A stretch of DNA of 64,000 bases. Origin: Escherichia phage vB_EcoP_SU7. The notes under the pieces are model-generated. The model was not told the origin of the DNA. It was given only the letters and a program-made list of their open reading frames with translations, and did no database searches. A program made the position numbers and the translations under genes. The DNA lies in the sequence record NC_070980.1. One strand, 5' to 3'. Of the stretch, positions 18,329 through 54,508 are shown piece after piece; position 1 is the stretch's first letter, and every line of letters begins with the position of its first letter.

Positions 18329-18695
18329 CGTTTTCCTCTTTAGTCTTAATCTTATGGCAAGACTCTTTACATAAGACTTGAAAACCATCTTTCTCAACTA
18401 AAGCCCTCTCGATGATTTCATCCCAAGTAGCTTCATGGTCCACTGGAACAATAGGCTCGATGTGGTCGACAGCCACCTCTTTCAGAGGAGAGTCATTACC
18501 GCACATGGCACACTTGTAGTGCATTGCCAGCTTGCCAGTCTTAGGGTTGATTTTACGTTCTGTCTGAGCTTCTTTGAGAGCATCAAACATAGGCTTCCAC
18601 TTTCTAGTCAGAGAACGAATCCCTGACTTAATGAAGGAGTTATAACGTGCTTCAGTCCACTGACCAGAGCATCTTGTCTTCTCAGCTTTCGCCAT
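18291..18695 (-). CDS. HNH endonuclease
   Basis: CAMCGND…VDHIEPIV…CH, an HNH zinc-finger nuclease motif. Confidence 0.55.
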   Translation of the reverse strand: MAKAEKTRCSGQWTEARYNSFIKSGIRSLTRKWKPMFDALKEAQTERKINPKTGKLAMHYKCAMCGNDSPLKEVAVDHIEPIVPVDHEATWDEIIERALVEKDGFQVLCKESCHKIKTKEENDARREFKKSRDS

Positions 18696-18873
18696 AACCT
18701 ACATCCATATCAGCGTCTTCCCAAATGCGTTTATTGACTCGGTGTGATTCTTTATCAGCACGAGGGATACGACCTGTGCGACGATCAAATGCTTGGTGCT
18801 TAATCTTTTGATCTTTACGAGATTCACGAGTAGAGGAGTTTTCATCATACGAACGATAGTCAAATTTACCCAT
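18682..18873 (-). CDS. small basic hypothetical protein
   Basis: 63-aa Arg/Lys-rich ORF tightly packed between neighbours. Confidence 0.35.
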   Translation of the reverse strand: MGKFDYRSYDENSSTRESRKDQKIKHQAFDRRTGRIPRADKESHRVNKRIWEDADMDVGYGES

Positions 18874-18886
18874 TATAATATCCTTA

Positions 18887-19705
18887 TTACCAAGTTTTAT
18901 CTAACCATGACCAATCAAAGAGGTCACCTTCAGCTTGTCCAACGAAGAGCAATCGAGCATTTTCTAACATCTTAGCTTCTGCTTCTTCCTCGAACCTTTT
19001 ATAGTATTCCATTCGTATAATATGATAAAGAGTCCACTTATCGAATACCTTCTCAATAAGTTTGATTGCAGCCTTACTACCAATGCCTTTACGACGCATT
19101 ACTAGATTGCCACCCCACATCATTTCAACCTTCTCACCACATCCGGGAATGTTATCTGTGCTATCCCCGATCAGCATTTGGTAGAAGAAGTTCTGCCATG
19201 CTACTTCCTCTGATACATAATGAGGGGGTACTTCTTTCTGTCTCTCCCCGCAAGCCCAACGGTAATGCCATCCGGGGGTGATTAACAAATCTTTATCACG
19301 GGTGCAAATGATAGTGTTCTTATCACGTCTCTGTCTTTCAGCTAAGGCATCATCTGCCTCTCTCCCAAAAACTTCTACGTATTCGTAATTCTCTTTAATG
19401 TAGTCACTAACATTTTGCCAGTGGTGAGGTCTTTCTCCCGGTGGTCGATTAGCTTTATAGCCTTGCTGCTTAGCAATATCAAACCGAAAATTACCACCTT
19501 CGCTGAAGTAAAAGATTGTTTTCTCGCAACCAGACCTTGCAATGATTACATCTATTTTATGTTGAAGTCGTTCAATCAAGAATCCATAATCAACTGGAAC
19601 ACGACCTGTGTCTAGAAAAGGATGCTCTTGTGTAAGAGCACCGACTTCATATCGCAGAACATCTCCGTCCACAATTGCTACTTCAGGATAGATTACATCA
19701 GACAT
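18887..19705 (-). CDS. 5'-3' exonuclease / flap endonuclease (FEN, T5 D15 / T4 RNase H family)
   Basis: H3TH motif LIGDSTDNIPGCGEK…KGIGSKAA; ATG at 19705 lies 2 nt after the upstream gene stop. Confidence 0.8.
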   Translation of the reverse strand: MSDVIYPEVAIVDGDVLRYEVGALTQEHPFLDTGRVPVDYGFLIERLQHKIDVIIARSGCEKTIFYFSEGGNFRFDIAKQQGYKANRPPGERPHHWQNVSDYIKENYEYVEVFGREADDALAERQRRDKNTIICTRDKDLLITPGWHYRWACGERQKEVPPHYVSEEVAWQNFFYQMLIGDSTDNIPGCGEKVEMMWGGNLVMRRKGIGSKAAIKLIEKVFDKWTLYHIIRMEYYKRFEEEAEAKMLENARLLFVGQAEGDLFDWSWLDKTW

Positions 19706-26676: not shown

Positions 26677-27283
26677 CATTCAGTTATTCCCAAATTACTT
26701 CGGGTGTCGGACTATATCATAACAGCATAGCTAATTTGCTGTTGTTGGCGCTTCGAGGGTTTCCCTGTTAACCCCCTACTCCCTTAGGATAGTCTCTACA
26801 CTTTCCACTTCCGAATCCATCTACAACCGATTCCGAAGCTCACACCAAACTTCTCTGCAAGATGTACACCAGAGCATTCTGTTTCTAGCCAATAAAGCCT
26901 TGCAGCTTCTTGTCTATCTCCATTTCTTCCAGTGTTTGATTCTATTGCATGTTCTGAACCTTCAAGCATTTCTAAGTGCTCAAGATTGGAACAAGCCCTA
27001 TTCTTGCATTTGTGATTTATTTCATAACCATCAGGAATAGAACCAAAAGATTCTTCCCAAACATATCTATGATACATGACCCATTTGCCATCTATTACTT
27101 TTCTGAAATAACCATCTTTGTTAAGTTTGTGTGAGATAGGGATGATACACCCTGTTTCGGTTGTTTCCAAAACAAGAGTTTTCTTAGCCATATCATCTCC
27201 TAATAGCTTAGCTCGGTATTGCCCCCAACTTAATGGTAGGGTTTCACCGAGTTCACCAACTTTTACATGCACAATGAAAGTTT
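26677..27283 (-). mobile_element. group I self-splicing intron with HNH homing endonuclease ORF, inserted in DNA polymerase motif C
   Basis: P1: exon end CAUGCAU pairs with intron GUGCAUG (U.G at splice site); R-like AGAGACUA (26790-26797) and S-like GAUAUAGUCC (26709-26718) form P7; P9 hairpin with GUAA loop; terminal G at 26677; splicing restores …VIDMH|DEGQ…. Confidence 0.7.
26796..27191 (-). CDS. intron-encoded HNH endonuclease
   Basis: YEINHKCKNRACSNLEHLE HNH motif; ATG at 27191 preceded by AGGAG (track start 27272 is GTG inside P1). Confidence 0.65.
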   Translation of the reverse strand: MAKKTLVLETTETGCIIPISHKLNKDGYFRKVIDGKWVMYHRYVWEESFGSIPDGYEINHKCKNRACSNLEHLEMLEGSEHAIESNTGRNGDRQEAARLYWLETECSGVHLAEKFGVSFGIGCRWIRKWKV

Positions 27284-28978
27284 ATGCATGTCAATAACCT
27301 TCGCACAACGAACACCATCCCGCTCAATCCATTTATTGAGGAATAGCATTGCATACTTCATAACAATCGCCCCAGCGCTCTGTAAGAGTGTATTTAAGGC
27401 TTTATGGACCATAACCTTTCCAGTTGCATCTCTTCTCATTGTAATACGACGTCCATCCACACCGTAGATATATCCACTTTGCGCTTTCTCTGTCATACGT
27501 TCAATAAGGATTGCAATACAAGGGTTCTCTGCTAAGAATCTTGCTCTCATGATAGCCCCTTCGTCAGAGCCACCACCTACAATACTTCCTAACTTAGCGT
27601 CACCTGCCCCATAGTTAAAGGCATAGATAAACGTTTTAGCATTATCACGAGTAGGAAGGCCAGCAAGTTTTTGGTTATGTGAGTGAATATCTCCTTCTAA
27701 AAGAATATCTCTATACATAACAGCAGAAGCTAGACCACGTTCAGCTTCTCGTTTCTTAGCCGGGTTGTTTTCTCGCTCTGCTTCAGCGAGCATCTCACGA
27801 CATTCTTTAATAAGGTAGTGAGCTAGCATCCTCAGCTCAAGACCAGAGCCATCGTAACCTAAGAAGATTTCACGACCAGCAGGAACATAGAACTTATAGG
27901 CACCTACAGGTTTGTCTTTCTTGCCCGGTTTTCCCACTTCGTAGATAATGTTAGTACCCTTTCGTACGTAACACCCATCAGGGATATGGTTGGTAATGAT
28001 GAAAGGATGGTTATGACTATCGTCTGAGGAATAGTCAGATTGAAAAAGACTGCGGCACTCGTGACCAAACAAACCGCGAGAAGGAATATTAACAACAATG
28101 CGATGTTTAAAACGAAATGTCGGAGTAGCGCAGCTATTAGCTTCGGCGGACAACTTACCATCTTTACGTTCCTTGTCGATAAGCCCGCTAATCAAACCTA
28201 GCCTGTGAGCCGCTACAACGCGTCTCTTAAGCAAACTTCCTACACCCCCTAGCTCACCCCCAAGCCCCTCTTCAAGAGTCTCCTCAAGGTTTGTAGGGGC
28301 TGTGGGCCACTTGTTTGATGTAGCCAAAGCTTTTTTGATTTCATCAAAGGTTACAGGTTTCTTCCTATTCGGATTAAGACCTAAACCACTGACGTAGGCT
28401 TTCATGTAGTTGACAGTGTGATAACGGAAATGTTTATCCAAAAATCTTCGGATATCAGCATCTATCATCTCCGCTGTCTGTTTCTCTTTAGCATTACCTC
28501 GAATCCAAGCAGAATACCATGCAGAGTATGTACCATACTTCTTCATAGCTCTACGGATTTCAAATGTATTCCAAGGTTTCTTAGAATAATTCCACTCTGG
28601 AGGTATGAAGCCTTCGTCCATCAAGGCTTCTTTGATACGTGCATCTTTCGATGGGTCGAAGTCTACATACTCAACGCAAGTAAACGCCCCACCGATATCT
28701 TCTCTTTTAAGACCAACTCTGTCACAATAGAGCTGAGGCCACTTCTGTAAAGCACCTGACTTCTTAAAAGGTTTCGAATAAGTTGAACCATCCACCCGCA
28801 TTTTGGGGAGGAGAGGAATCAGTTCTTTATCAATATTGACAATAATCTCTTTGAGAAGGTGAACAAACCACCGAGCGTTTCTTCTGTTGAAGTTGACTCC
28901 ATGCTTCGCTTGTTTTGAGATTATATCAGCGACTGTCATCTCCGTTATGAAAGGTAACTTATCAGGGTTATCCATCAC
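27284..28978 (-). CDS. DNA polymerase (family A, T7-like), exon 1, polymerase domain
   Basis: Motif A GYDGSGLELRMLAH; motif B RDNAKTFIYAFNYGAGDAKLG; …LNTLLQSAGA…; ORF stops six codons past the splice point. Confidence 0.85.
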
Positions 28979-32576: not shown

Positions 32577-33224
32577 TTAACTCTCCAAAGTTTTCTTCAG
32601 GGCTGCCCACGAGATTGGGTAGAGTTTAGCCATCTCTTCGTCTAGAGATTGGGCAAACACTCGAACTTCATATTGAGCGTGAGATGAGAGTCGCTGACGA
32701 CACAACTCAAACCAGCCATACAAAGAACCAGTCCAGTACCAAGTAGTTATCATACCTTGAGGCAAAACAAATCTAGCCTGTTCCGGAGCAATAAATTTAA
32801 TCAATTCATCATAACTAGCAAGAGATGCTTCATACGCAGAGTTAAACAAAGCCAAAGCTTTTGCCTCCTCTTCCCCTTCAAGAAGCGCTCCAGAACCAGA
32901 GTGTAAATCATCTGGACGAGAGAAAATTTCTTTAGGTATGAAAATATCCACTGCTCCGTCTTTGTATCTACGACTCATCTCATTCCAAGAGAATCCAACT
33001 TGATGTTTTTGTAGCTGTCGTGCGATTGCTATCGGGGCTTCACACCGGAAGCTTGCTTGTGGGTGACGAAAAGGGCTTACATGGCGTTCTCGAGCTAAGA
33101 AGTTAATAAGCCGAGTATCATTTTCTTTCAGCTCCTCCCTTTCTACTCCCATAGTTACACGAGCGGCATTTACCACAGTAAGGTCTGATCCGAAGTTATC
33201 AATTAGTGAAGCTTTGATTGTCAT
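32577..33224 (-). CDS. thyX: flavin-dependent thymidylate synthase (ThyX family), divergent motif
   Basis: Aligns by eye to ThyX across AARV, SPF.H, F..APIA.ARQ, SWNEMSRRY, SHAQ.E, but the canonical RHR is KHQ here. Confidence 0.65.
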   Translation of the reverse strand: MTIKASLIDNFGSDLTVVNAARVTMGVEREELKENDTRLINFLARERHVSPFRHPQASFRCEAPIAIARQLQKHQVGFSWNEMSRRYKDGAVDIFIPKEIFSRPDDLHSGSGALLEGEEEAKALALFNSAYEASLASYDELIKFIAPEQARFVLPQGMITTWYWTGSLYGWFELCRQRLSSHAQYEVRVFAQSLDEEMAKLYPISWAALKKTLES

Positions 33225-33705: not shown

Positions 33706-33981
33706 TTACTTTTTGTTCAGAGCTGTATCCAAAAAGGCTTTCAGGTTTGCTTCAGTTTGCATACCGGACAAGCTGTAATGAGCACCACTGTTCTTATCAG
33801 GGATGACAAAGGCTGGGATACTGCGAACACCATATTCAATGGCTCGCTCTCGACCATCACCTTCGGTGATATTTACTTCTTCAACTTCTACGTTGTAATC
33901 ATCTACAACCTTCTTAAACACAGGAGCCATAGCTGCACAAGGTGCACATGAATTACTATAAAACTTAATCACTTTACTCAT
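33706..33981 (-). CDS. thioredoxin
   Basis: …KFYSNSCAPCAAMAPVF… CxxC active site; ATG at 33981. Confidence 0.6.
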   Translation of the reverse strand: MSKVIKFYSNSCAPCAAMAPVFKKVVDDYNVEVEEVNITEGDGRERAIEYGVRSIPAFVIPDKNSGAHYSLSGMQTEANLKAFLDTALNKK

Positions 33982-34171
33982 TCTATTCCTTGTTAATAAA
34001 CAGGTTGATATGACGCTGGGTAGCAGGAACAACAATAAAAGATTTATACTGACCTTTTGCTAAGTCATGAGCAATCTTCTTTGTCTGACCAAGACCCATC
34101 ACACAGCCACTAACGATAATGGCATGTGCTTGTAATTCTTCAGGTAGGTTTAGTTTCACTCTTTGGGTTCC

Positions 34172-34366: not shown

Positions 34367-34588
34367 TTATGCAGTCAACAGGTGGAGAAGGAAAGGAATC
34401 ACAATAGTACAAACTACCAGAGCGATGCTGCCATGTTTAATAGCTTTAGCTTCACTTGGATTTTCTTTAAGCATCTGCTTCTGGGCCAGATAGACGATAC
34501 CACCAATAATGATTGCCCAAAAAGACCATACGATTGCTGAAAACATATTCACATCCTTATAAAGAAGTTCGCCCCACCTCTTAAACAA
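34367..34588 (-). CDS. small two-TM membrane protein (tandem paralog)
   Basis: Same layout as the previous ORF (…KENPSEAKAIKHGS…). Confidence 0.45.
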   Translation of the reverse strand: MFKRWGELLYKDVNMFSAIVWSFWAIIIGGIVYLAQKQMLKENPSEAKAIKHGSIALVVCTIVIPFLLHLLTA

Positions 34589-34609
34589 AGAGACAGGGCG
34601 GAGGTTTGA

Positions 34610-35185
34610 TTAGTAAGACACATCACCACTAGAGTGGGACATGTTGCTCTTGACGAAGTAACAGAACTTGCCAAGACCTTCATTAATTTCTTGAAGCATA
34701 CTCTGGTCCACTGGATAGGTGCACAAGTCTGAATCAAACTCATCCATCTTCTCAATGATACACATAAGAGTCATGCACATGTCGGAAAGCATACCGTCCA
34801 TGTCAAGATCAGCGTTACCTTCTCGGAACCAAGCATGACCTAAATAATTACTAGCAGTAGCATCCACCTTAACACAATGAAAGCGCATACGCTCTGCTAT
34901 TCGGTCGCCTGCCTCACGAGCATAATCTTCTAGTTCATCGAACATACCATGAACACCTTGGAAACCAGCTCCAGAGACGTTCCAGTGGTAGTTCTTTGCT
35001 TTGATGTGTAGAAGTTCAAGGTTAGCTTGCACACCACACAAGATGTGTTCTAAGCTGTTACCGCTAATCAGTTTATTCATTCCCTCAAGACGAGAGATAG
35101 AAGAGTCAGTAGTAGAGAATGGGTTGCTAGAACCCACTCGTGTTAGTTCTGGTAAGTCGAAGACATTATTATGCATTAGGTGCAT
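34610..35185 (-). CDS. Dps / ferritin-like protein
   Basis: …ANLELLHIKAKNYHWNVSGAGFQGVHGMFDELEDYAREAGDRIAERM matches the Dps di-iron helix pattern. Confidence 0.5.
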   Translation of the reverse strand: MHLMHNNVFDLPELTRVGSSNPFSTTDSSISRLEGMNKLISGNSLEHILCGVQANLELLHIKAKNYHWNVSGAGFQGVHGMFDELEDYAREAGDRIAERMRFHCVKVDATASNYLGHAWFREGNADLDMDGMLSDMCMTLMCIIEKMDEFDSDLCTYPVDQSMLQEINEGLGKFCYFVKSNMSHSSGDVSY

Positions 35186-35990: not shown

Positions 35991-36524
35991 TTATACGCCT
36001 TTAGAAGCAACTACACCATTACTACCGTTATAACGACCCTTCACTGCATAGGAATCATCACCAGCGTGAGAGTGTTCAAACATAACCATTTGACCAACAC
36101 GCATCCCAGCACGAACTCGTAAGCTGTGATTGTGGGTAACGTTATGGAACTCAAAGGTTAGCTTACTGCTATTAAACCCTGCATCAGCCCAACCAGCATG
36201 TAAGTGGTTCAAACCACAACGAGCCATAGAGGAGCGAAGTACAAACAGACTTGAGATGTTATCTGGAAGGTTAAACTCTTCCATTGAGTGAGCTAAGAAG
36301 AACTGTCCCGGAGTGATGACAATGCCATCTTCAGGGATTTTCACTTCTTTCCACTTGAGGTTTTCTTTAGCATCAATGTCAACAATACCATCAGCCTGTT
36401 CTTCAACAAGGATAGTATCACCAATACGGATATCCACGCTAGCAGCGTTAACATATTTATGCTCCGCATCTAAAAAGCCATTATCAATAACGCTGTGTAA
36501 TTCTTGAGAACCTAAAAGACTCAT
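35991..36524 (-). CDS. dCTP deaminase / dUTPase-superfamily enzyme
   Basis: NAASVDIRIGD… and C-terminal …GMRVGQMVMFE fit the dCTP deaminase family. Confidence 0.6.
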   Translation of the reverse strand: MSLLGSQELHSVIDNGFLDAEHKYVNAASVDIRIGDTILVEEQADGIVDIDAKENLKWKEVKIPEDGIVITPGQFFLAHSMEEFNLPDNISSLFVLRSSMARCGLNHLHAGWADAGFNSSKLTFEFHNVTHNHSLRVRAGMRVGQMVMFEHSHAGDDSYAVKGRYNGSNGVVASKGV

Positions 36525-38008
36525 GAGTTTCTGTTTCCTTGTACAGATGATGCCAAATTATTAATCATATTACGAGCTGTTTCACGAGATAGTGTAACAC
36601 CTGCTAGGTTGTTGTGAAGCTCACCAGATAGCTCACGAGCTGCTGCTCGTAGTTCTGCACCAAGTGCAGTGTCAGAGTGAGCTAGACCATTACGACGACC
36701 AACAGGTCGAGGAGCTTCGTTAGCGTCATTAGCTAATGATGCAAAACCAATATGAGCAGCTTCACGAGCCGCTATAGCTGATACTCGATCTTCTGTAGGG
36801 GTTGGCAAATCACCAACTTCTACACGTTCAATATCACTAGCACGTAGACCCTGAACAACAGAGCTTACTGTTTCCCATGAACGACGAGAACGCTGCAAAT
36901 CATCCATTGACGGAGATGGAATAGGACGAGCAGTTCCTCCTTGGACATGCCATGTACGAGTATCCATTCCAGAAGAGTGTGCACTACCAAAACTACCAGT
37001 GAAAGTATCACGAGGTCTTTCATGAGGTTGTACGTTATACCCTACAACACCCCCTCGAACAGTTCGAGAAGTTTCTTCATTAAAAGCTTGAAGATCTCGT
37101 CTGTTAGTTCCCGGAGTCCAAGGTCGTGTAATTGCTTCAGCACCTATAGTGGTTAATCCACTAGACCATTCTGTCTGTAGGTTAACTTCCTCGTCCAGAT
37201 AACTACGACCCCTTTCCTGAGGAATGTTTAATGTAGTTTCCATCATCTTCAGGGTATAATGACGACGCTGATTCTGATATAAATTTACACCAGCCATAGG
37301 CCCAACTAAATCACTGATCAGATGAACTTCTGGTTCACCAAAAGCTCCCATTGCAAGGTGCATGTACTCAGTAGAACTGCTGTAAACTGCAACTGTTGCT
37401 TCAGGCCACTTTTTGTGGACATACTTCATGTCACGACTTGTCACCACAGGGATATCATTAGTATATGCCATTGCAAACATACCTTCGTTCGACACATACA
37501 TATCATCGAGAGTCATAAACCCTTGACAAATCATAGGGAAGCGACCGCTCAGAGTATCCATATCCAGAGGGAGGTTAATCATCATCTGAATCTTCACTTC
37601 GTCAATCTCCACTTCCAAAATCTCTTGGAAAGTGAAAAGTGCTTCAGCGTAGGTTGTTCCACTGATAGGCTGAACTAGTCGAGATGTAACTTGAAGCCCC
37701 TTACTCTCTGTCCAAGACAAGAAGTTGTCAAGGAACAGTGCAGCATTACTTACGTTAGCAGGGCTGTTTTCCTGACGAGTGTTCCAACGGAATCCTCCTT
37801 GAACTAGGAAGATATCAACATCATTCGGAGTTCGATTTTGGAAGAACGTATCACGGATAGCACCACCTGCAATGACAGGATAGATACCATCAGGGACTAC
37901 GTTATCTCTGATCAGATTGCGAATCAGATCAAGCCCTACGCTGAGGGCTTCTCCTTCTTGAAGGTTTAATTCAGACAATGGAATCTTAATCATTTCTACA
38001 TTTTCCAA
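36521..38008 (-). CDS. nucleotidyltransferase-domain protein (tRNA-NT / poly(A) polymerase-like head) with long C-terminal extension
   Basis: [24 protein letters not shown] matches the GG.[VI]RD…D.D head motif; C-terminal ~250 aa Ala/Arg/Ser-rich. Confidence 0.4.
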
Positions 38009-38544
38009 TTTAGAGATGGGGGATTCTTATAATCAAATCCAGCCATTTGACAAAGACACATGTAAACTTTAACTGTCAAGTTAACGTCTTGCTCACAATA
38101 GGTGAACATGTCTTCAGTGAATGCGTCCCATGCCTCCTCCTGTTCTCCATAATCTCCTTTCAGCTCCCCAAGAAACTCGCCCCATTGTTTGAGGCCGTGA
38201 CCACGAGGGCCATGTCTAGGGTCGCCTTTGGGGTATTCTGGACTATCACCAATACGGTCAGGCTTGAGATATCTACTCAGGCACAAAGTATCGAAGACGT
38301 TAAAGCGAAAAGGTATCACATGAGAATAAAACTTAAACAAAGCAGGAAGGTCAAAATCAATAATATTGTGACCTATTACTACATCAGCTTCTTTCAGTTT
38401 GTGTAGTGCTTCTTCAATTTGGTGAGGGCGATACCCCCACCGCTCTCCAGATAATACATCAAATATCCAGATACACCAGACATTCTGAATACCATCATAG
38501 AGATTATCCCCCTCGATATCAAACGCATACAGTTTCTTTACCAC
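37996..38544 (-). CDS. stand-alone 3'-5' proofreading exonuclease (T7 DNA polymerase exo-domain-like)
   Basis: Exo [12 protein letters not shown], Exo [16 protein letters not shown], Exo [12 protein letters not shown]; 182 aa; encoded ~9 kb from the polymerase domain. Confidence 0.75.
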
Positions 38545-40328
38545 GGACGTGCCTCCCCTTCTTGTGCAAGTAAGGAAGCTGCATCCTCTCCATTGGTAAC
38601 GGTAAAAGGATGCTCTTCATCAACTTCATGATCTTCTCGTTCTACAAGACGACCTGTTTCATTGATGTATTTGGTATAGCAAACCCCTGTCTGTCCATAG
38701 TTACGCTCTTTGAGCAGTCGTATGATTGACAAGTTTTTACCTAACCCATCCGCTTGTTTGTTACGTTCAAAACCAATAATACACTGACACCAGCGCATCA
38801 ATGAACGTGAACCAGTAAACTGTACTTCTTTAACCTGACCACCTTCTTCGTGGGGTGCACCACCTGCCGGAGCGTTCAAGTGAGATAATACAAAAGCAGT
38901 GAAGTCTAATTCCTTACACATACCAGCAAGCTCTGAAGCAATCTTGCTGATTTCTGTGTTTACCTCAGATGGGGTTAAGTGAGATACCAATGCAGTGATG
39001 TTATCAAGAATGATAAATTTACACTGATTCTCAACTACCCAAAAGCGAATACACTGCTTAATGTCTTCCCACTCGTTCTGCCCAAAGTTGTCATACAAGA
39101 AAAACTTATCAGCGTATCGAAGTGCTTCATCTCGTAGCTGGCTTTCTTCGTACTCAACATCTGGTCGGTGGAATGGAATAGATGCAGATTTACCTGCAAT
39201 GTTCTTAACAGACATGCCTACCTTCTCTTCCAAGAAGAAGCCACCACCATTAAAACCATGCTCAAGGCAAAGCCATGCTACTAGTTCGTGTGCGATTAAG
39301 GTTTTACCTGAACCAACACCACCGCCGATTGCAACCATCTCTCCCCAACGAATACCAAAGGTCATGTCGTTAAGAGTTTTCCACGGATAAGGAATACCCC
39401 ATTCCGCTTTCTTCAGAGCATCTTCGAGGCAATCAAAAACTGTAACAGCTCCAGCAGGAGATTCCCGCTTAGCTGAATATTTCAGATTGTTGAAAAGCTC
39501 TTGACCTCTCCCTGCAAGTAACATGTCGTTTGCATCTTTGATTTCCTTTTCTTGTCCGTTATAAGTGAACGTACCTTTTGGAATCCTTGCAAACTTAACA
39601 TGCGGGTACAGAGAACGACCCTTAGTTAAAGCAATCTCACCTGCATCATCATTGTCCATGCAGAGTACAATCTCCTCGAAACCATTAATAAAATCACGGT
39701 TTCTTGATAATACAGAAGAGATTGAACCTGCACCGAACGGAAGAGAGACGCAAGCAGGTTTGATGTTAGTTGCGTTTGTAAACGCGGTAAGTACGTGGAA
39801 CCCAGACATACAAGAGAGAGGGTCTTCAAAGATGAAGAGTTTCTTGTTGTATACGTCACCACGTTGTGCTTGAGCCATACCAAACAAGTCGGCTTCTTTC
39901 ACATTACCTACATAATAGAACTTCTTGCTGTCTAGAAGTTTTACTTCATATCCAACAATGTTCCCATCACGTTCACGAGGGAAGAAGTAGCTGTCAGGAG
40001 TTTGACCATCTGTTTGGCTTAAACCGATACGGCATCCATAACGTTCAGATACAGCTTTAGGAATTAAGCGACGAGTCAACTCTCCCTGAGGAAGCTCTAA
40101 GCAATCGTCTAAGACTTCTCGGAGTTCTTCAGGGGACAGCTCTTTCTTTTCATTAGGAGTGGGCGTCGTTCCTTTCTCGAAGATTTCATACGCACCACAT
40201 CTGTTACATGAACCCCACTCCTCACCGGACTCTTCATTTCGGAAGAGAATCATGTGATTGCGGGTCTTATCACGACCATGAGAGATACACTCTTTACAGC
40301 CCGTGTCTCCCAAAATGATCTTTGACAT
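38538..40328 (-). CDS. DNA primase-helicase (T7 gp4-like)
   Basis: N-terminal zinc ribbon; [15 protein letters not shown]; Walker [10 protein letters not shown]; Walker B FIILDNI. Confidence 0.85.
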
Positions 40329-40363: not shown

Positions 40364-40570
40364 TTAGTAAAACGATCGTATTTCTTCCCACACATCATCT
40401 TGCAAGTTTCTAAAACCCTGCAAGGTTTGCTTTGTTCTGTGAATAAATTCTTCAGAGTGCTTATCAGGTGTGAGCATACTGACAAACTTTTCATAGCGAT
40501 TAATCTTCCACCGCATCTTTAAGTAGTCAGATTCAAGCTTTCTTAACTTCTGCCTGTCAGTTACTGTCAT
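40364..40570 (-). CDS. small hypothetical protein
   Basis: ORF 40364-40666 trimmed to an internal ATG; start uncertain. Confidence 0.3.
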   Translation of the reverse strand: MTVTDRQKLRKLESDYLKMRWKINRYEKFVSMLTPDKHSEEFIHRTKQTLQGFRNLQDDVWEEIRSFY

Positions 40571-40988
40571 CCTTCTCACCTGCCAGATATGCTGTCCAGT
40601 CACCCGATTCAACCAGAACATCTTGTTCTTCGTCGATGTGATAAATCCACGCTTCCACAGTTTCACCGCTGTCCAATAATACTGGAATCAGCGTACGCTT
40701 GTAAAAGGTGTATGGGTTATCATTACCACGATGACCTTCCAGACCGTCATACGGACCTTCCAGACCAGCTTGGGTTGTTTCAAAGACTTCTACACGAACA
40801 GGCTTACCATTGCTGTCATGCTCCAAAGATACACTTGGGAAGTATGCTGTGCAATATTGATACAGGTTACAGTTGTTTACTGTCCACCCTTCACCAATAG
40901 ACACACCACCGGCACGAGCATTGATAGCGTGGTTGTGTTGACCTTTTCTCAAGCTTCCGTAAGTTGCAACTAGTACTTTATCAGACAT
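40557..40988 (-). CDS. gamma-glutamyl cyclotransferase-fold protein (AIG2 / GGACT-like)
   Basis: N-terminal VATYGSLRKGQHNH matches the YG[ST]L[KR]KG..NH motif of AIG2/GGACT enzymes. Confidence 0.6.
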   Translation of the reverse strand: MSDKVLVATYGSLRKGQHNHAINARAGGVSIGEGWTVNNCNLYQYCTAYFPSVSLEHDSNGKPVRVEVFETTQAGLEGPYDGLEGHRGNDNPYTFYKRTLIPVLLDSGETVEAWIYHIDEEQDVLVESGDWTAYLAGEKDDSN

Positions 40989-41054
40989 TATATTACCTTT
41001 TAGTGTTTCAGTTAAATTCGAACTAGCCTCCTCTTTCGAAGAGGCTAAAGCAAA

Positions 41055-41240
41055 TTATTCTACTTCGAAGTGTTTGATCACACCAGTCAGTACATCAGAT
41101 TGGAATGTACCCACTAGCTCTGTACCTCGGAAGAAGTTGACATTTGTTCCAAGTGATTCAAAGCGATCTGCTTGAATGTCCAGAGATTGAATATTTCCTT
41201 CTGCTGACATTGTACGAAACATGATTGTGTATTTATTCAC
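41055..41240 (-). CDS. small hypothetical protein
   Basis: 61-aa ORF. Confidence 0.35.
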   Translation of the reverse strand: MNKYTIMFRTMSAEGNIQSLDIQADRFESLGTNVNFFRGTELVGTFQSDVLTGVIKHFEVE

Positions 41241-41479
41241 AGACTTGTTACTCCCTTATCTGCTTGTGCAATTGCGATGATACGCTCAGCACATTCCATT
41301 GAATATTTATCACCTCGTTTGAGGAAGGTGATGATTGCAGAGAACTGATTACCAATCATTCTCTTATTTGTGATACCGAACTCTTCACAGAGTTGGTTGA
41401 TAGCTTTACGAGAGCCTACAATAAGAGGCTCTTTTTCTTCGGTCATTCCACGGCTGATCAAATCTTCGATAGACAACAT
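41237..41479 (-). CDS. small hypothetical protein
   Basis: 80-aa ORF coupled to neighbours. Confidence 0.4.
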   Translation of the reverse strand: MLSIEDLISRGMTEEKEPLIVGSRKAINQLCEEFGITNKRMIGNQFSAIITFLKRGDKYSMECAERIIAIAQADKGVTSL

Positions 41480-41505
41480 TACAAATTCCTTTTTGTTTAA
41501 TTTAA

Positions 41506-42741
41506 TTACAGAGTTACTGCTACTTCGCTACCTTCAACATTGACAGACTCTAACTTGCGAGGGTTATGAATCTGGACTGGATTGACCGGAACGTTCCAAC
41601 CACTGCGGTAGAAGTTACGACCATCACAGAACAGGATGACATTGGCAGACATTGCATTCGGTTGCAGGTTGTTGTGGACATGACGGATATTTGCAATCCA
41701 GTAGCCACGAGACAAAGTGTAGCCAGTAGGTGCATTACGAATAGTTTGAGTATTCATCTGACCTTCCAGTTGCATTTCTTCAGGAACCACATCAACTGAA
41801 TCAATCGGCTGTGCTACTTGTCCTTCCAGTGCAAAGTTTTCATCATCAGCACTTTCACTGTCAGCAACCAATTCACCGTCCCCGTCTTCAATCGGAGTCT
41901 GGTAAACCACTTTATACTGAGGGGTATAGAGAGGGTTCTGAGCTTTAACAAACTCAAGAATGTTGTGACGATAAGTATCCAGAGTCGTACCAGTCAGTCC
42001 CGGTGCTGTGTTAACTTCCAGTACCCATGCTTCTTGACCTTTGGTGATAATATCAACTGCACCGAAATCCAGACCCATTGATTCAACAGCTTTCACCGCA
42101 TTGATCAGAGAGGCATCATTCGGAGCATCTGTGAAGGAGCTTGAGTAAACCCAGCCAGTGTGGTGATTACGAATATCTTCACGATAGTTAGGGTCTTCGC
42201 GATAACCATTGCGACGAATCTTCTTCTGAACATAGGTGATTACACCTTTGAACACATGGACACGCCATTCACGACGTGGGCCTTGAATACCTTTAGTGTA
42301 CAGCTCAGCCTGATCAACTGTAGTGTTAGGCTCTACAACAACAATACCTGAACCAGAGTGACCAGTCAGCTCGTGACGCTCATACACAATGTTGCCAGCG
42401 TTTGACCACTCCTGAGCAGTCTCTTGAACATCTGTGTATTCCACAGTTTTAACACCTGCTTGGTCCATCACACTGAAAGCACGACGTTTGTTCGCTGCCA
42501 TATGTAAGGCTGCGGTACGGTTAAGGACGGTTGCAGAACCAAAGAATGATTCAGGATAGCGACGGTTCCCGTAGTTAACAACCACATCATCTTCACGAGA
42601 ACGCCAGCGGCTATTCTCTGAAAGAAGCCCCATCACGTTAGCATTGATGCGTTCATCACGGATAGTATCACTGATAGCAGATACCAGAGCGTTAACAGAA
42701 TCAGACGGGCCATACGGAAGAACACGGATACGAGTAGTCAT
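41506..42741 (-). CDS. ATP-grasp ligase
   Basis: AWVLEVNTAPGLTG is the ATP-grasp Mg-ATP E-x-N motif; 411 aa. Confidence 0.65.
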   Translation of the reverse strand: MTTRIRVLPYGPSDSVNALVSAISDTIRDERINANVMGLLSENSRWRSREDDVVVNYGNRRYPESFFGSATVLNRTAALHMAANKRRAFSVMDQAGVKTVEYTDVQETAQEWSNAGNIVYERHELTGHSGSGIVVVEPNTTVDQAELYTKGIQGPRREWRVHVFKGVITYVQKKIRRNGYREDPNYREDIRNHHTGWVYSSSFTDAPNDASLINAVKAVESMGLDFGAVDIITKGQEAWVLEVNTAPGLTGTTLDTYRHNILEFVKAQNPLYTPQYKVVYQTPIEDGDGELVADSESADDENFALEGQVAQPIDSVDVVPEEMQLEGQMNTQTIRNAPTGYTLSRGYWIANIRHVHNNLQPNAMSANVILFCDGRNFYRSGWNVPVNPVQIHNPRKLESVNVEGSEVAVTL

Positions 42742-42743
42742 TT

Positions 42744-42974
42744 TTAGATACCTTTTAGTTTAAGAATTTCGTTACGACAGGATTGAATTTTAGCTTCGAT
42801 TGCCCAATACTCAGCGAACATTTCGTCTTCTTGGGCATCGCTTGGAGAGTCGATTAAGTTAAAAGCAAACGGATACAGCTTTCGCTGCTCCGTTACCAGT
42901 TGTTGAAGTCGGAGTTGTTGATACTCCAGCATTGTCAGGTGAGGCTTAGCTCCCTTGCTTGACATGAGGCTCAA
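42744..42974 (-). CDS. small hypothetical protein
   Basis: 76-aa ORF directly downstream of the ATP-grasp gene. Confidence 0.4.
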   Translation of the reverse strand: MSLMSSKGAKPHLTMLEYQQLRLQQLVTEQRKLYPFAFNLIDSPSDAQEDEMFAEYWAIEAKIQSCRNEILKLKGI

Positions 42975-43179
42975 CTTTAATCCCCTTCATTTTAACATAG
43001 TCAGCCAACACGTTGTTGATAACGGTTGGAAAAGGGATTTCTACTGGAGAATCAACCAGCTTCCCAATACCTTCTTGCATCCACTTCTGAATTGCTCGGA
43101 GGTTATCACATCCTGTGCTTGTCATCGGAATACGGCGGGTAGTTACCACGTTATCCAACATCAGTTTACGAACTTCCAT
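42946..43179 (-). CDS. small hypothetical protein
   Basis: 77-aa ORF. Confidence 0.4.
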   Translation of the reverse strand: MEVRKLMLDNVVTTRRIPMTSTGCDNLRAIQKWMQEGIGKLVDSPVEIPFPTVINNVLADYVKMKGIKVEPHVKQGS

Positions 43180-43190
43180 AACTATACCTC

Positions 43191-45224
43191 TTAGTGTTTA
43201 CCTTTACAGTAATCTGAATTACAGATCACCCTGTTTTCTTTGTTCAGTGAGCAAGTTTCTGCATCACGCCACGGAATTTGTTTATAACAGACTGCACAAA
43301 ACCCAATTGAAGTCCAGAGGGCTTTTGTGAACTCGGCTGTTCGTTGTCCATCATAGCTGACAACTGTTTTTCGGAGAGAGGTTGACTTTTTTGGAAATGT
43401 CTCCGCTTTCTCAGCGGGTACCTCCTTTGGGGAATTCTTTGGACCATAAACAGAGATGGCATAAGTATCACCACCACGTTTTTCCAAATACGAATTAGGA
43501 ACATCTGCAAGTGTAATATCCCCTGAACGTTTTGCTGAGCTAACCATTACGATCATACGGCTAAGCATACGTTCATCAACACGAACAGCTACTTCAGGAC
43601 GACGTGGGTTGGTTGTGTCTACTGCTTTAGTCCAAATATAACCCTCAGATAGAGTAACATTCTTTACTTTATCTTTGATTTCTTTGGAGCAGATATAACA
43701 AACATCTTCACCACGAAGTTTACTCATTTCGTTGTCAAACTCGAAATCAGTCTTGACTTCACCACAGACAGCACATACGCCCAAAGGCACATCTTCTTCA
43801 TCTTCAGAGATTTTAGATAACGCTTCGAAGCATTCTGGATGCCAGTATGCTTGATAAGCAAACACAGCCTTACGAGCATCTTTCCAGTCAATGTGCTTAT
43901 CACAACCACCACAATCACCATGAGAGTGAGATTCCCAGAACTTACGAGTGACTTCTACACCATTTTTAGTGATGAAGGAGTCCTCTGCATCAAAAGGGAT
44001 GTCATCATCAAAATCAGCAGTAGTGCTTTGAGGCTCCTTATCTGTAGCATCAACAAACAGCCCTGAAGTTAGTACGAGGCGAATCATACTGTCCACTTCG
44101 GAGATACAAGCAATCGTCCCGCGATATACTACCTTTGGGTTTTCAAGAGCCTTAAGATATTCATCTTTGGCTACGTTGTGAACATCCCCTTCGACATACT
44201 CTTGGGCTTTATCGTCGTAGATGTAACCAATCATCTTACCACGATCTGTGTTGTTATAAGCATGGAACTCGTGAGGAATAATATCCACACGACCATCACG
44301 ACGATAAGGAAGACCACGATCGGCAGCCAGTTTGTTCTGGTCTTCAATCGCTTTACGACGACGAATGTCTCCGCTTGTCACGCCGGGCTTGTCGTCTTTG
44401 TTTCCGTAAATGTCGCTTGTGCTGCTGCTTGATTTGTTTGTCTGTTGGTTCTGATATAGAGAGGAGTTCGAGTAATAGCCGCCCCAGCGACTCGTTATCG
44501 TAAAAACCGGAAGCTTGTGCTCCACCTCTTGAACCAGAGTCATACGACTGTTAGACACATCAAAGATATACTCAGTTCCCACTTTACATTCGAAGTGGTC
44601 ATTGATACGGTTCTTGTGGGATTTAGAACGCTCTAAAATCCACATAAGCATAGCTTCTTCAGAAGCCCCAAACCAATCTAAACCACAACGGGCTAGGTGG
44701 AAAGGACGCTCATCATTACGGATAATGTGAAGCGTGTTGTCTTTAGCATCATGCCAAATCAAAGTGAATGCACCATCCAGTTTTTGGATAGTCTCTGCTG
44801 CTCCAATGGTATTAATTGAGTGGCAGATGTTTTCACTATCAACTTCGAAACGCTTACTGTCAGGAAGGAGATCTTGATCTAACAGGGTTCCATTATGAAC
44901 CAGAGTAATATCCCCGTGAGTAAATGGGTGAGCATTTCGAGCATTGACAGCCCCACGAGTGGCATGTCGGCTGTGACCAACAATCCACGAAGGAGGAACT
45001 ACGTAGTTCGTAAGCCCTTTGGTAATATTTGTATATTCTGTCTGGAGCATAAAAGCATAAGAAGGAAGAGCTTCTTTATAAGAGAAGACTTGCTTTTCAC
45101 CTTTACGCTGACCAAACACACCAGTTGAGTGCTGTCCACGGAAAACACCAGCATACAGAAGTTGGTTGAAAATATCCAAATCTGTTGAGGTCATGTTGCC
45201 GCCAGCTAATACGATACCACAAAT
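43191..45224 (-). CDS. class II glutamine amidotransferase-like (Ntn hydrolase) protein with C-terminal Cys-rich zinc-binding region
   Basis: In-frame CGIVLAGG sits just 5' of the track ATG and is preceded by AGGTGG plus an ATT codon 8 nt downstream; GVFRGQHSTG; C-terminal CxxC clusters. Confidence 0.5.
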   Translation of the reverse strand: MCGIVLAGGNMTSTDLDIFNQLLYAGVFRGQHSTGVFGQRKGEKQVFSYKEALPSYAFMLQTEYTNITKGLTNYVVPPSWIVGHSRHATRGAVNARNAHPFTHGDITLVHNGTLLDQDLLPDSKRFEVDSENICHSINTIGAAETIQKLDGAFTLIWHDAKDNTLHIIRNDERPFHLARCGLDWFGASEEAMLMWILERSKSHKNRINDHFECKVGTEYIFDVSNSRMTLVQEVEHKLPVFTITSRWGGYYSNSSLYQNQQTNKSSSSTSDIYGNKDDKPGVTSGDIRRRKAIEDQNKLAADRGLPYRRDGRVDIIPHEFHAYNNTDRGKMIGYIYDDKAQEYVEGDVHNVAKDEYLKALENPKVVYRGTIACISEVDSMIRLVLTSGLFVDATDKEPQSTTADFDDDIPFDAEDSFITKNGVEVTRKFWESHSHGDCGGCDKHIDWKDARKAVFAYQAYWHPECFEALSKISEDEEDVPLGVCAVCGEVKTDFEFDNEMSKLRGEDVCYICSKEIKDKVKNVTLSEGYIWTKAVDTTNPRRPEVAVRVDERMLSRMIVMVSSAKRSGDITLADVPNSYLEKRGGDTYAISVYGPKNSPKEVPAEKAETFPKKSTSLRKTVVSYDGQRTAEFTKALWTSIGFCAVCYKQIPWRDAETCSLNKENRVICNSDYCKGKH

Positions 45225-45301
45225 TTTCTAATCCACCTGAAGGGTAAACCCTTTCATCTAATTAACCTTTAAATGCGCCCTTTATCAGAGCGCCCATTGT
45301 G

Positions 45302-46402
45302 TTACAGCAGTCGTTCTAATTGCATTTCCAGATGGTCTGGAATGTAATCAGTGATGTTATTATCACTGCTACCTGATTCACGCATCAGAGCAAACATGTG
45401 ACGAATTTCACGAACCGTTGCGATTCGAGTGCTTTCAATCTGAGGGGTGTAGTAGGTCATGATCTCTTCATAGACAGTGTTGGCATTACCGCGCACATAT
45501 CCCAAGAAACCATAGAAGTCATTCATATCACGTAAGTTGATAAGGACTTCACCATCAGGGCCAGTCTGTTGCACACGAACACGACCAACCAAAGTTACAG
45601 ATTGCTCACGACAGAACAGAATATCACGAGCAAGACGATACCCTTCAGTGAGATCACTGTCTCTTGGAGTATAGTCTAGGGGTAGATGTTGAATCATAGG
45701 AGCGAAGCGCAGCTCATTCAACTTCTCAACATAAGCTTCATTGTCTAAATCTGCATATTCAACAGCCAGTTTCTTGAGAACCAAGAAGCGGTTGACCAGA
45801 TTCAGAAGTTGGCTCTTTTTCCACTTCGGCTCTGAGATACGGAACTCAACAGAACCAAATTGAGATAGAGGCAAAAGATTAAGGGAGGTATATTTATCCC
45901 AGCTATTAACAAGAGAGTGGAAGAAAGCTTCCCCGTCTCGGTTGAACGCTGACGAAGCATTCATAACTTGTGCTTGAACGACAGCAAAAGCTGGACAGAA
46001 GTTGCTACGATAGCGATGGTATCCAGAACATTTGAACATCATCTTTTCATAGAACGTCCATCCAAGAATAACTTTCTTAAGGATATTACTATCAGCGTCA
46101 CGCATATCCATATGAACGTGAGTGGAACAGCGCCAAGTTCCCTCGGCTCCAGAATCCTGTACTGCTTCACTCAGATTGTTAATAGCACGAAGTAATTCTT
46201 CACCGTTGTAAGGTCGTGCACATACTAATTCACAACCATCACGAAGAGAGCCATCTTCAGTACAAACCCACATATCAGCGTCAATGTTAGTTGTACCTTC
46301 GACTTCTAACTCAATACCAACACCACACTGAAAAGCAATACTTGGATGCGGTTCAGATAAGCGAGGGTTACGGTATCCAAAAACTTGTGCTACGGTTGTC
46401 AT
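45302..46402 (-). CDS. glutamine-synthetase-like amidoligase (putative carboxylate-amine ligase)
   Basis: GIELEVEG and STHVHMD metal-binding-type motifs; sits next to GATase II-like and AIG2-like genes. Confidence 0.4.
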   Translation of the reverse strand: MTTVAQVFGYRNPRLSEPHPSIAFQCGVGIELEVEGTTNIDADMWVCTEDGSLRDGCELVCARPYNGEELLRAINNLSEAVQDSGAEGTWRCSTHVHMDMRDADSNILKKVILGWTFYEKMMFKCSGYHRYRSNFCPAFAVVQAQVMNASSAFNRDGEAFFHSLVNSWDKYTSLNLLPLSQFGSVEFRISEPKWKKSQLLNLVNRFLVLKKLAVEYADLDNEAYVEKLNELRFAPMIQHLPLDYTPRDSDLTEGYRLARDILFCREQSVTLVGRVRVQQTGPDGEVLINLRDMNDFYGFLGYVRGNANTVYEEIMTYYTPQIESTRIATVREIRHMFALMRESGSSDNNITDYIPDHLEMQLERLL

Positions 46403-47025
46403 AATGATTCCACCAACTCTACATTATATGATGACAGGTCTGAAGAAATATGCTTGAACTTCTCCAGAAGGTTTAAAGATTGACGACCATTGTCGCCATA
46501 ACCAGCTTCAAGAAGCACGTTTCCAACGTAAGCTCCTTTGTAATAAACTTTTCCATCGACAGGATTGATATAGATGAAACGAGTAACCAACCCTTCAAAC
46601 TCTGGATTAAACAGGTTGTACACCAAATCACCCGGAATCGAACGTCCGAGAGAAGGTGGAGTACCACGAAGTTTATTCCCCATCAATCCTTTAGCTCGCT
46701 GACGAACAGGGTTGATATGGGTCCAGCTCACCATGTTATTACCATGCTGAAGGTATCCTACATCTGGAGACTCCAGAATGAGGCTGTGATCAAACACTGG
46801 GATATTACTAACAATCTGACGCTCAAACTGACCTTCGGAGTTTTTAGTCCAGCGTTCCGCCTCAAACACTAAAGACATTTCAGCGTCGTGTGAGTAGTCG
46901 TCGATATCAAAGTTACCTTGCTGACGAACATCAAGCACATATAGAGGGAGGTTTTTACCATCAGGTGATCGCTGAGCAATCCATGTTCCACAATAATAGT
47001 GTTGAAAATCTCTTAACAAGCTCAC
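46399..47025 (-). CDS. hypothetical protein (cluster member)
   Basis: 208-aa ORF, stop-start overlap with the amidoligase. Confidence 0.5.
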   Translation of the reverse strand: MSLLRDFQHYYCGTWIAQRSPDGKNLPLYVLDVRQQGNFDIDDYSHDAEMSLVFEAERWTKNSEGQFERQIVSNIPVFDHSLILESPDVGYLQHGNNMVSWTHINPVRQRAKGLMGNKLRGTPPSLGRSIPGDLVYNLFNPEFEGLVTRFIYINPVDGKVYYKGAYVGNVLLEAGYGDNGRQSLNLLEKFKHISSDLSSYNVELVESL

Positions 47026-47034
47026 AATATCACC

Positions 47035-47844
47035 TTATACAATCTGGAGTTTAGAGGAGAATTTATCCGCTTCTTTAACATCGTTACTGTTGATGATGTT
47101 GTGAAGCTTTTCAATTGGAAGGCGAGAGTGAAGTGACATCAATACTTCCATATCACAGCCTTGAACAACCTTATCAACTTGCTCATAAACAAACTTGCGG
47201 GTTGACTTCTCGCCAATCCAGAAGTTAGAAAGAGAACGATATTCAATACCGTAATCTTTGTAGCGAATGGCAGAAGCCTTTCCGTATAACTCTTTACGAC
47301 GAGTATCTTTATCCATGATCACAGCTGGCAAGGACAGGAAGTAATCACACAACACACCTAACATCATTTGAGTCTGACGACTAATTTCCAGCGTACCAGT
47401 GACGCCAAGGTGAACATGACCACCAGCAGTACGCAGACCTTTGTCTGTCGCTACTGGAGATGGGTTTTTCTGACCAGTGAAGGCGTTGAAATCAGGAGTA
47501 CAACCAAATACAAAGGCTGACGGATGGAAAGATTCCATCTCTTCTGAAGTGAACACATGAGAGCTAATCCCAAGTGCTGCCTCCATGCCACGTTCATTGA
47601 GAACTTTGTTAGTCAGATCAATACCACGCTGAATGTTATCATTAAACGCTTCAAACCCTTTCTGTGGGTTAATATCGAACTCGGCCAGAACGTTGTCTTC
47701 TTGAAGACGAACATCAGGGGCCAGATCAATTTTGTTGTCTTTAGAGCAGCCCAGCTTACCAGCCACAGAGGTGATAATACCAGAAGCAGTACGAACAAAC
47801 ATTTCCGGATCCGACCCTATTAAGAATTTACGTTTAGTAGTCAT
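47035..47844 (-). CDS. hypothetical protein, possibly a second carboxylate-amine ligase-like enzyme
   Basis: IGSDPEMFV and GGHVHLG motifs; assignment weak. Confidence 0.3.
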   Translation of the reverse strand: MTTKRKFLIGSDPEMFVRTASGIITSVAGKLGCSKDNKIDLAPDVRLQEDNVLAEFDINPQKGFEAFNDNIQRGIDLTNKVLNERGMEAALGISSHVFTSEEMESFHPSAFVFGCTPDFNAFTGQKNPSPVATDKGLRTAGGHVHLGVTGTLEISRQTQMMLGVLCDYFLSLPAVIMDKDTRRKELYGKASAIRYKDYGIEYRSLSNFWIGEKSTRKFVYEQVDKVVQGCDMEVLMSLHSRLPIEKLHNIINSNDVKEADKFSSKLQIV

Positions 47845-54422: not shown

Positions 54423-54498
54423 TTGGTGCACCCTACAGGATTCGAACCTGTAACCAACGACTTAGAAGGTCGCTGCTCTGTCCATTGAGCTAAGGGTG
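54423..54498 (-). tRNA. tRNA-Arg (anticodon UCU)
   Basis: Minus-strand read GCACCCT-TA-GCTC…GAGC-A-GCGAC-CUUCUAA-GUCGU…ACAGG-UUCGAAU-CCUGU-AGGGUGC-A-CCA folds as a canonical cloverleaf with encoded CCA. Confidence 0.85.
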
Positions 54499-54508
54499 CT
54501 GGATTTGT

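Follow-up and report, generated by a model that had tools for sequence, protein, structure and literature searches.

A stretch of 64,000 nucleotides (nt) from Escherichia phage vB_EcoP_SU7 (sequence record NC_070980.1), referred to below as the window, was analysed. On its minus strand, it encodes a protein that begins like an enzyme adding CCA to tRNA and ends in a long tail, and the question raised by this locus is what such a protein does in a coliphage. The initial annotation, made from the letters of the window, placed it near a tRNA gene and suggested that it could repair tRNA 3' ends, tail RNAs or act on another substrate. The protein is a pol-beta-type nucleotidyltransferase (NTase), and its head is of the kind found in class II CCA-adding enzymes and poly(A) polymerases. 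Its identity as a minimal NTase of class II descent is firm, the metal-binding motif being intact and the tail disordered; it is probably Gad2-like.

The extent of the gene has to be considered first, as the initial annotation had taken the frame from 36521 to 38008, beginning at a TTG codon. The open reading frame (ORF) at 36521..38008 (minus strand, -) is real and uninterrupted in the ORF list, while its start is better placed at ATG 37993. Since TTG 38008 falls within the upstream exonuclease gene, all orthologues begin with M-I-x-[IV]-P, and GenBank annotations, including that of Bas88, use the start equivalent to ATG 37993 (2 nt past the TAG stop of the exonuclease gene), the coding sequence most likely comprises 490 residues plus the stop codon at 36521..37993 (-). 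The ORF is matched by phrog_12715, 'nucleotidyltransferase' (E 9e-160), the name that the gene already bears in public records. The phage belongs to the ECBP2-like group of Gordonclarkvirinae coliphages. The protein, with an isoelectric point (pI) of 5.2, is 96% identical to its counterpart in phage vB_EcoP_PAS59 and 83-93% identical to those in 20 other records.

Direct sequence scans gave no indication of the fold. Pfam, NCBIfam (both at E up to 1 or 10) and PADLOC returned no match to the window NTase, and neither did a single-sequence search of the PDB. The fold was settled instead by structure prediction and Foldseek comparison. In an AlphaFold model based on a 56-sequence alignment, residues 1-268 (37190..37993, -) are predicted to be folded, with a mean predicted local distance difference test score (pLDDT) of 88 and a predicted template modelling score (pTM) of 0.86. 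This domain consists of a pol-beta head followed by a truncated neck of the type seen in class II tRNA nucleotidyltransferases (tRNA-NTs) and poly(A) polymerases (PAPs). The top 45 Foldseek matches of the full-length model in the PDB are all class II tRNA-NTs or poly(A) polymerase I (PAP I), and Pfam PolyA_pol matches 33/64 of the sequence relatives. The initial annotation had staked its proposal on similarity to pol-beta-type NTases, and such similarity was thus found in both comparisons. The profile of the family was built from orthologues in GenBank phage records; a first, word-indexed homologue search had returned only relatives with more than 90% identity.

Motif A (residues 41-62; 37808..37873, -) reads IAGGAIRD...NDVDIF, with GGAIRD at residues 43-48 and DVD at residues 58-60, where D58 and D60 form the metal-binding pair. 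The head motif recognised in the initial annotation is therefore present. Residues G43, G44, R47, D48, D58 and D60 are invariant among 56 relatives, whose identity to the protein goes down to 16%. Motif A is also the sole stretch that the family profile matched to solved CCA-adding enzymes among PDB sequences (6ibp and 7otr; 21 residues, E 2e-3).

Outside motif A, the protein departs from class II enzymes. At the position of an acidic residue in the next strand of class II enzymes, the protein has a near-invariant Gln within K134-I135-Q136 (37586..37594, -), kept in at least 90% of sequences among the 56 relatives. When the family was compared by hhalign with the canonical class II units of the protein P0063, the Q136 column paired with their Asp (probability 95.7%, 170 columns); we take this Asp, from what is known of the pol-beta fold, to be the third catalytic carboxylate. 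Mapping of motifs from the window protein to canonical enzymes combines this alignment with that of the window clade to the family (99.4%). P0063 itself is a protein of 1455 residues with four tandem class II NTase-like units, each bearing GGCVRD...DIDI. At the position of motif B, canonically RRDF, alignments, hhalign and regular expressions place R151-F-P-M154 (37532..37543, -). The wider family keeps FD there, whereas the window clade has FP (R151-F-P153), so that the Asp and both Arg residues are lost. The region of the canonical EDxxR motif is occupied by a neck helix with Y191-V-H-K-K-W-P197 (37403..37423, -), recognised from invariant columns and the clade alignment. YVxKKWP is invariant in Gordonclarkvirinae and the motif occurs in 27/30 clade members, while its counterpart in minimal relatives is HHxPKLQKKYP. 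Regular expressions found no ED..R anywhere in the NTase, and its sole RRD tripeptide, at residues 298-300, is a chance occurrence in a hypervariable linker. The catalytic domain is acidic, with a net charge of -14 (median pI of the clade 4.9).

Such changes raise the possibility that the enzyme is dead and that its fold and tail only bind partners, for instance as an organiser of the replisome or a steric inhibitor of a host protein. The Gln at the canonical third acidic position, the loss of motifs B and D, and the long tail with a conserved C-terminal segment would agree with this, and many anti-defence proteins do act by binding. However, GGxxRD and DxD are invariant over about 1000 cluster representatives, including those only 16% identical, which is hard to understand without catalysis, and the family-wide Gln suggests a functional active site of altered design. 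A catalytically dead scaffold is very improbable. The best explanation of the motifs is that the protein would be a catalytically competent, template-independent NTase, a phage-specific offshoot of class II tRNA-NTs and PAP I that has kept the head and a remodelled neck.

The next point is whether this offshoot could still add CCA. In class II enzymes, RRD senses the 2'-OH of ribose, and selection of C and A is templated by the protein itself through EDxxR. The body and tail domains, which bind the acceptor and T-arm of tRNA in these enzymes, are missing from the NTase, whose fold ends at about residue 268; only 139-171 of its residues superpose on class II enzymes of 340-520 residues. Because these domains, RRD and EDxxR are all absent, the parts that confer specificity for tRNA, ribose, C and A have been lost. 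Profile searches agree with this picture. Neither PF12627 (PolyA_pol_RNAbd) nor PF01743 nor the NCBIfam models of CCA-adding enzymes and PcnB matched the window NTase. With PF01743, for which the cut-off is 23 bits, Kuravirus orthologues reach 20-21.5, and the distant relatives P0031 and P0032 exceed the cut-off. When the window clade was compared directly with canonical class II units by hhalign, only the head aligned. Judged by its sequence, the NTase is not a normal CCA-adding enzyme.

The tRNA gene provides no link either. The initial annotation correctly described tRNA-Arg(UCU), found at 54424-54499 (-), with a templated CCA after the discriminator A, and this is the only tRNA in the window. 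It is nevertheless not near the NTase gene, being separated from it by 16.4 kilobases (kb) and located in a separate gene block, and a functional link between the two was rejected on these grounds. Genes for RNA repair (RNA ligase, kinase-phosphatase or other) were not found near the NTase gene, which is tied instead to a DNA replication operon described below; this also counts against the tRNA repair suggested at first.

An enzyme of RNA 3' ends may still be envisaged, either repairing tRNA CCA ends after damage by host defence or tailing host or phage RNAs in the manner of PAP I. Among solved structures, its fold comes closest to PAP I and CCA-adding enzymes, and the signature of class II is present as motif A; the phage also has a tRNA gene, and the tails of the clade are rich in Arg and Ser. 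Additionally, overexpressed relatives (Gad2 of phage SPbetaL7 and gp22 of phage Emajogi) are toxic, as expected if host RNA were altered. Set against this are the missing body and tail domains, RRD and EDxxR, the lack of PolyA_pol and PolyA_pol_RNAbd matches, an acidic domain with a net-neutral tail that is unlike the basic PAP I, the distant tRNA gene with its templated CCA, the templated CCA of E. coli tRNAs, and the absence of RNA-repair genes nearby. Action on RNA 3' ends thus seems rather unlikely. Of the substrates first proposed, tRNA 3' ends are not supported, whereas the fall-back of another substrate survives. In practical terms, annotation as a CCA-adding enzyme, or a link with the tRNA of the phage, should be avoided for this gene.

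The remainder of the protein is a disordered tail. Residues 268-490 have pLDDT below 50, and thus about 220 residues are predicted to be disordered. Arg and Ala are the commonest residues (R 11.5%, A 11%, S 10% and G 9% in residues 291-490), in line with the Ala/Arg-rich tail of the initial annotation. The length of about 250 residues and the low complexity described there need correction, as the tail has no repeats and its Shannon entropy (3.3-3.7 bits in windows of 40 residues) is reduced only moderately. The tail is net-neutral (pI 6.35) and devoid of Lys, with 0/222 Lys and 24 Arg in residues 269-490 (binomial p ~5e-6). Lys makes up 1.4% of the whole NTase vs 5.6% in the other long ORFs of the window, and the pooled tails of 27 clade members (2747 residues) contain 0.5% Lys and 9.9% Arg. 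Lys-poor ORFs also occur in the structural module, at 7721-8752 (+) with 0.6% and at 10634-11602 (+) with 1.2%, the pooled value being 5.6%.

Conservation divides the tail into two parts. A disordered, hypervariable linker (residues 269-360; 36914..37189, -; pLDDT below 50), which holds the RRD tripeptide and an RGG, varies by in-frame insertions and deletions. In the ECBP2 group, its residues 291-360 show 73% mean identity and about 14 gap columns, vs 95% identity in the catalytic domain. The C-terminal segment (residues 361-490; 36524..36913, -), Lys-free with a net charge of -2 and predicted to form low-confidence helices only, is 91-95% conserved among ECBP2-like phages, on a par with the catalytic domain. 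Because residues 291-360 are hypervariable and residues 361-490 conserved, the tail is a linker followed by a constrained segment. The latter has no similarity to solved structures in the PDB and is probably a partner-binding region. Between genera of Gordonclarkvirinae, the tails cannot be aligned, and their lengths span about 40-260 residues. An origin of the tail by frameshift or misannotation was rejected, because 21 phage records and 22 protein clusters keep it within one ORF and its indels are in-frame only. A basic RNA-binding region was likewise rejected on account of the neutral charge; because the tail is net-neutral and the catalytic domain acidic, a simple basic nucleic-acid-binding tail is argued against.

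To which family does this NTase belong? An exhaustive profile search of 1.84 billion representatives gave 1034 cluster representatives at E up to 1e-3. About 30 of them share the whole region of residues 1-230 together with a tail (274-453 residues in total), while most others are stand-alone proteins of 190-250 residues, which represent a minimal form of the family. The window-clade profile aligns with this minimal family at a probability of 99.4% (hhalign, E 2.6e-21). Conversely, a hidden Markov model (HMM) of the minimal family, run against all 288 ORFs of the window, found only the NTase ORF (58 bits, E 5e-14). The minimal family, in turn, aligns with the N-terminal domain of Gad2 at 97.2% (hhalign, E 3.5e-11, 141 columns). 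The Gad2 sequence, from Bacillus phage SPbetaL7, was obtained from the supplement of 10.1101/2023.05.01.538930, where Gad2 was found to be needed by SPbetaL7 for resistance to Gabija, to be toxic when expressed and to be a predicted nucleotidyltransferase.

Recorded domains point in the same direction. PF26128, which bears the name 'Gad2', is on record for two Kuravirus orthologues (P0023 and P0024), for the minimal relatives P0031 and P0032, and for all but one of 120 listed homologues of Gad2, the exception being a fragment of 226 residues (P0228). Nothing past residue 56 of Gad2 aligns with the window-clade profile, and a tblastn search of phages with P0122 gave no match. Because the chain via the minimal family is strong but the direct comparison with Gad2 is confined to the head, the window NTase is placed by these profiles as a probable peripheral member of the Gad2-like family and not as a close homologue of Gad2. 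This relationship had not been seen in the initial annotation. A literature search on PF26128, the mechanism of Gad2 and phage enzymes described by a 'polymerase head domain' yielded nothing mechanistic.

Genomic context provides the second line of evidence, since the NTase is a core gene of a replication operon. This block of four genes begins with a primase-helicase similar to gp4 of T7 (38538..40328, -; phrog_239, E 6e-175, and DnaB_C). It continues with the 3'-5' exonuclease subunit of a split family A DNA polymerase (37996..38544, -; PF01612 and phrog_38876/403) and, after the NTase, ends with a dCTP deaminase (35991..36524, -; PF22769, E 1.6e-34). Its junctions are tight: the primase-helicase and exonuclease genes overlap by 7 nt, a gap of 2 nt separates exonuclease from NTase, and NTase and dCTP deaminase overlap by 4 nt. 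No strong terminator was found inside the block, and in a distant relative the exonuclease and NTase genes overlap by 4 nt. Metagenomic and IMG/VR phage contigs in which identity of the NTase falls to 26-35% have retained this gene order, from helicase through exonuclease and NTase to dCTP deaminase (a scan of IMG/VR loci confirmed 8). Part of this conservation is inheritance, as the genomes with the kept order are collinear relatives. More telling is the presence of minimal relatives in the replication modules of other podoviruses. They lie between the primase-helicase and DNA polymerase genes in the Autographiviridae BOESR1 and BB8 and after the exonuclease gene in Bruynoghevirus Ab22. Similarly, Emajogi gp22 of a P. 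putida phage adjoins a primase/helicase and is toxic when overexpressed (10.64898/2026.09.15.751885).

The C-termini of the relatives add to this picture. Phe or Trp is the last residue in 28/145 relatives, vs 9.6 expected (p 3e-7), and is often preceded by acidic residues or Pro, as in ...DDDF, ...YDNF, ...IIPF and ...WVPF. These tips resemble the C-termini of T7 gp2.5 (...EDGDF) and gp4 (...NDTDF) and presumably also the C-terminal tip of the E. coli single-stranded DNA-binding protein. As established in work on T7, the tails of gp2.5 and gp4 dock on the DNA polymerase. By analogy, the aromatic tips suggest that Gad2-like NTases may dock on a replisome protein. The window NTase ends in ...QGNRNS and has no aromatic tip.

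On this evidence, a DNA-directed accessory of the replisome can be considered, acting like a terminal transferase on 3' ends of phage DNA or performing a step of covalent DNA modification behind the resistance to restriction. Translational coupling to the exonuclease subunit and dCTP deaminase with strict synteny, the position of the Autographiviridae relatives and the T7-like tips of relatives speak for it. Moreover, loss of the ribose-sensing RRD could permit the use of dNTPs. To our knowledge, no DNA base-modification pathway uses a class II-type NTase. The dCTP deaminase, together with ThyX, represents an ordinary dTTP supply, the window NTase lacks the aromatic tip and its domain is acidic. 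T7-like phages also intersperse anti-host genes among replication genes, so position is weak evidence. Although the resistance to restriction-modification (RM) is unexplained (PMC11990801), this accessory role is unlikely, if worth keeping in view.

The surroundings of the operon show further features. The DNA polymerase is split, as about 9 kb containing many small genes separate its exonuclease gene (37996-38544, -) from the gene of its polymerase domain (27263-28978, -), and an HNH endonuclease gene (26796-27272, -) abuts the latter. The primase-helicase C-terminus (38538-38630, -) ends in ...QEGEARPW; like T7 gp4, it has acidic residues and an aromatic last residue. Upstream of the operon, at 40557-47844 (-), lies a phiEco32-type cluster conserved in distant relatives, with genes for GGACT (gamma-glutamyl cyclotransferase-like), a RimK-like ATP-grasp protein, a class II glutamine amidotransferase, Amidoligase_2 and a COOH-NH2 ligase; no link between this cluster and the NTase tail was found. 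Beyond the dCTP deaminase, also on the minus strand, there are genes for a ferritin/Dps-like protein (34610-35185), a thioredoxin-like protein (within 33706-34035) and ThyX (32577-33224), and the strongest terminator-like hairpin of the region, at 34570-34600, follows the Dps-like gene. The GC skew changes sign at about 17800-18900, at the junction of the plus-strand structural block and the minus-strand early and replication block.

The reading tentatively favoured here, with a probability of about 0.35, is that the NTase carries out a host- or defence-directed nucleotidyl transfer and is made together with the replisome, rather than serving CCA repair. The protein would be co-produced with replisome proteins, and D58 and D60 would transfer a nucleotide from an NTP or dNTP onto an acceptor hydroxyl; given the ancestry of the enzyme, this would most likely be a nucleic-acid 3' end. 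This transfer would neutralise a host nuclease or defence system aimed at replicating or linear phage DNA, as Gad2 does with Gabija. The Lys-free tail might act as a flexible tether, with the last 130 residues docking on a partner, as the aromatic tips appear to do in many relatives. The invariant active site, the chain to the Gad2 family, the operon context, the aromatic tips and the conserved residues 361-490 all speak for it. The biology of the subfamily is also relevant. Gordonclarkvirinae withstand restriction and most of the defences tested to an unusual degree, for no known reason, and the authors of the BASEL collection noted the pair of dCTP deaminase and NTase and speculated that DNA modification explains the RM resistance (PMC11990801).

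Several points weigh against such a role. In direct comparison of the window clade with Gad2, only the head motif aligned, at a probability of 72-77%; an HMM of Gad2 alone gave the window NTase 8 bits and did not detect it, and its close relatives P0001-P0022 have no recorded Pfam match. The C-terminal half of Gad2, about 200 residues long and very acidic, is unrelated to the Lys-free disordered tail. The mechanism of Gad2 was itself listed as unknown in February 2026 (PMC12904381), so that likeness to Gad2 predicts little. Furthermore, the NTase is a fixed core gene of the whole subfamily and its outgroups, which is more typical of replication or metabolism than of accessory anti-defence. An acidic catalytic domain with a net-neutral tail suits no free-standing binder of nucleic acids, and the replacement of the usual third carboxylate by Gln could reflect either an altered chemistry or the lack of any. 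Literature searches found no experiments on any Gordonclarkvirinae orthologue, including plating on Gabija.

The product of the transfer might also be something other than an extended nucleic acid. An NTase acting on small molecules or proteins could make a nucleotide product that keeps a nuclease such as GajA off, produce a decoy signal or nucleotidylate a host protein. However, both motif A and the most similar folds belong to RNA 3'-end enzymes rather than to cGAS/DncV-like nucleotidyltransferases (CD-NTases), and there is no match to PADLOC or signalling families. A phage NTase making decoy cyclic nucleotides was rejected, as the motif of the decoy family differs (GS...SDxD). Such a substrate is quite improbable.

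A more far-reaching reading can be outlined, although it is a long shot. A template-independent NTase tethered to the replisome may mark or extend linear or nascent phage DNA at its 3' ends, or make a nucleotide product, so that end-inspecting nuclease-helicases of the host (Gabija, OLD-like, RecBCD-linked and possibly restriction systems) could not act. The Lys-free tail would then hold the enzyme to the helicase or the split DNA polymerase. If true, this would provide the missing cause of the broad RM and defence resistance in Gordonclarkvirinae and the first mechanism for the Gad2 family as a whole.

The significance of this gene extends beyond one phage. It is a core gene of a subfamily of coliphages considered as therapeutic candidates, which resist restriction and most tested defences. 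Related small enzymes form about 1000 sequence clusters with members in the replication modules of many podoviruses, and the only studied relative is Gad2; the substrate of any one member would explain the whole family. The clade is tractable, since orthologues are present in BASEL phages Bas86-94, for which E. coli K-12 with restored O16-type O-antigen serves as a host. The name 'nucleotidyltransferase', the class II CCA head and the Pfam Gad2 label on Kuravirus orthologues were already public. New here are the explicit failure of the protein to qualify as a CCA enzyme, its position on the fringe of the Gad2 family, a Lys-free, net-neutral tail whose end is conserved, the family-wide Gln at the third-carboxylate position and the pattern of aromatic tips.

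Comparison with known systems places the window NTase between several groups. Class II tRNA-NTs (CCA-, CC- and A-adding) and E. coli PAP I (PcnB) share with it the pol-beta head and GGxVRD...DxD and are its best structural matches. Unlike them, it has no body or tail domains, RFP in place of RRD, no EDxxR, Gln at the third acidic position and an acidic domain. PcnB is basic overall and has a basic C-terminal RNA-binding region, whereas the NTase has a pI of 5.2 and a tail with a pI of 6.35 and a net charge of about 0. MenT/AbiEii toxins are more remote, representing another NTase family that lacks GGxVRD, is host-encoded in toxin-antitoxin or defence systems and scores far lower than class II enzymes.

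Gad2 resembles the window NTase in being phage-encoded and in having an N-terminal PolyA_pol-head domain of about 170-230 residues. Both proteins contain IAGG...NDVDI[FY], an (L/I)Q(M/I) strand, an FD.x.C region and a neck helix. They differ in that Gad2 has GGAITS where the NTase has GGAIRD, and in that the gad2 gene lies in an anti-defence hotspot of a temperate Bacillus phage, whereas the NTase gene belongs to a replication operon.

The small 'PolyA_pol head' NTases of podoviruses belong to the same family as the window NTase, with Foldseek template modelling (TM) scores of 0.5-0.6 on the target in BFVD. Examples are found in LKD16 (Pseudomonas), phiAS7 (Aeromonas), PS3 (Providencia), BOESR1 (Ralstonia), BB8 (Bordetella) and Bruynoghevirus Ab22, and as gp22 of the P. 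putida phage Emajogi. Like the window NTase, they are encoded among replication genes of T7 type. These proteins have 167-250 residues, the tail being short or absent; most retain FD at motif B, and many bear acidic-aromatic tips. Compared with them, the window clade has gained an extra N-terminal extension of about 35 residues and a tail of 40-260 residues.

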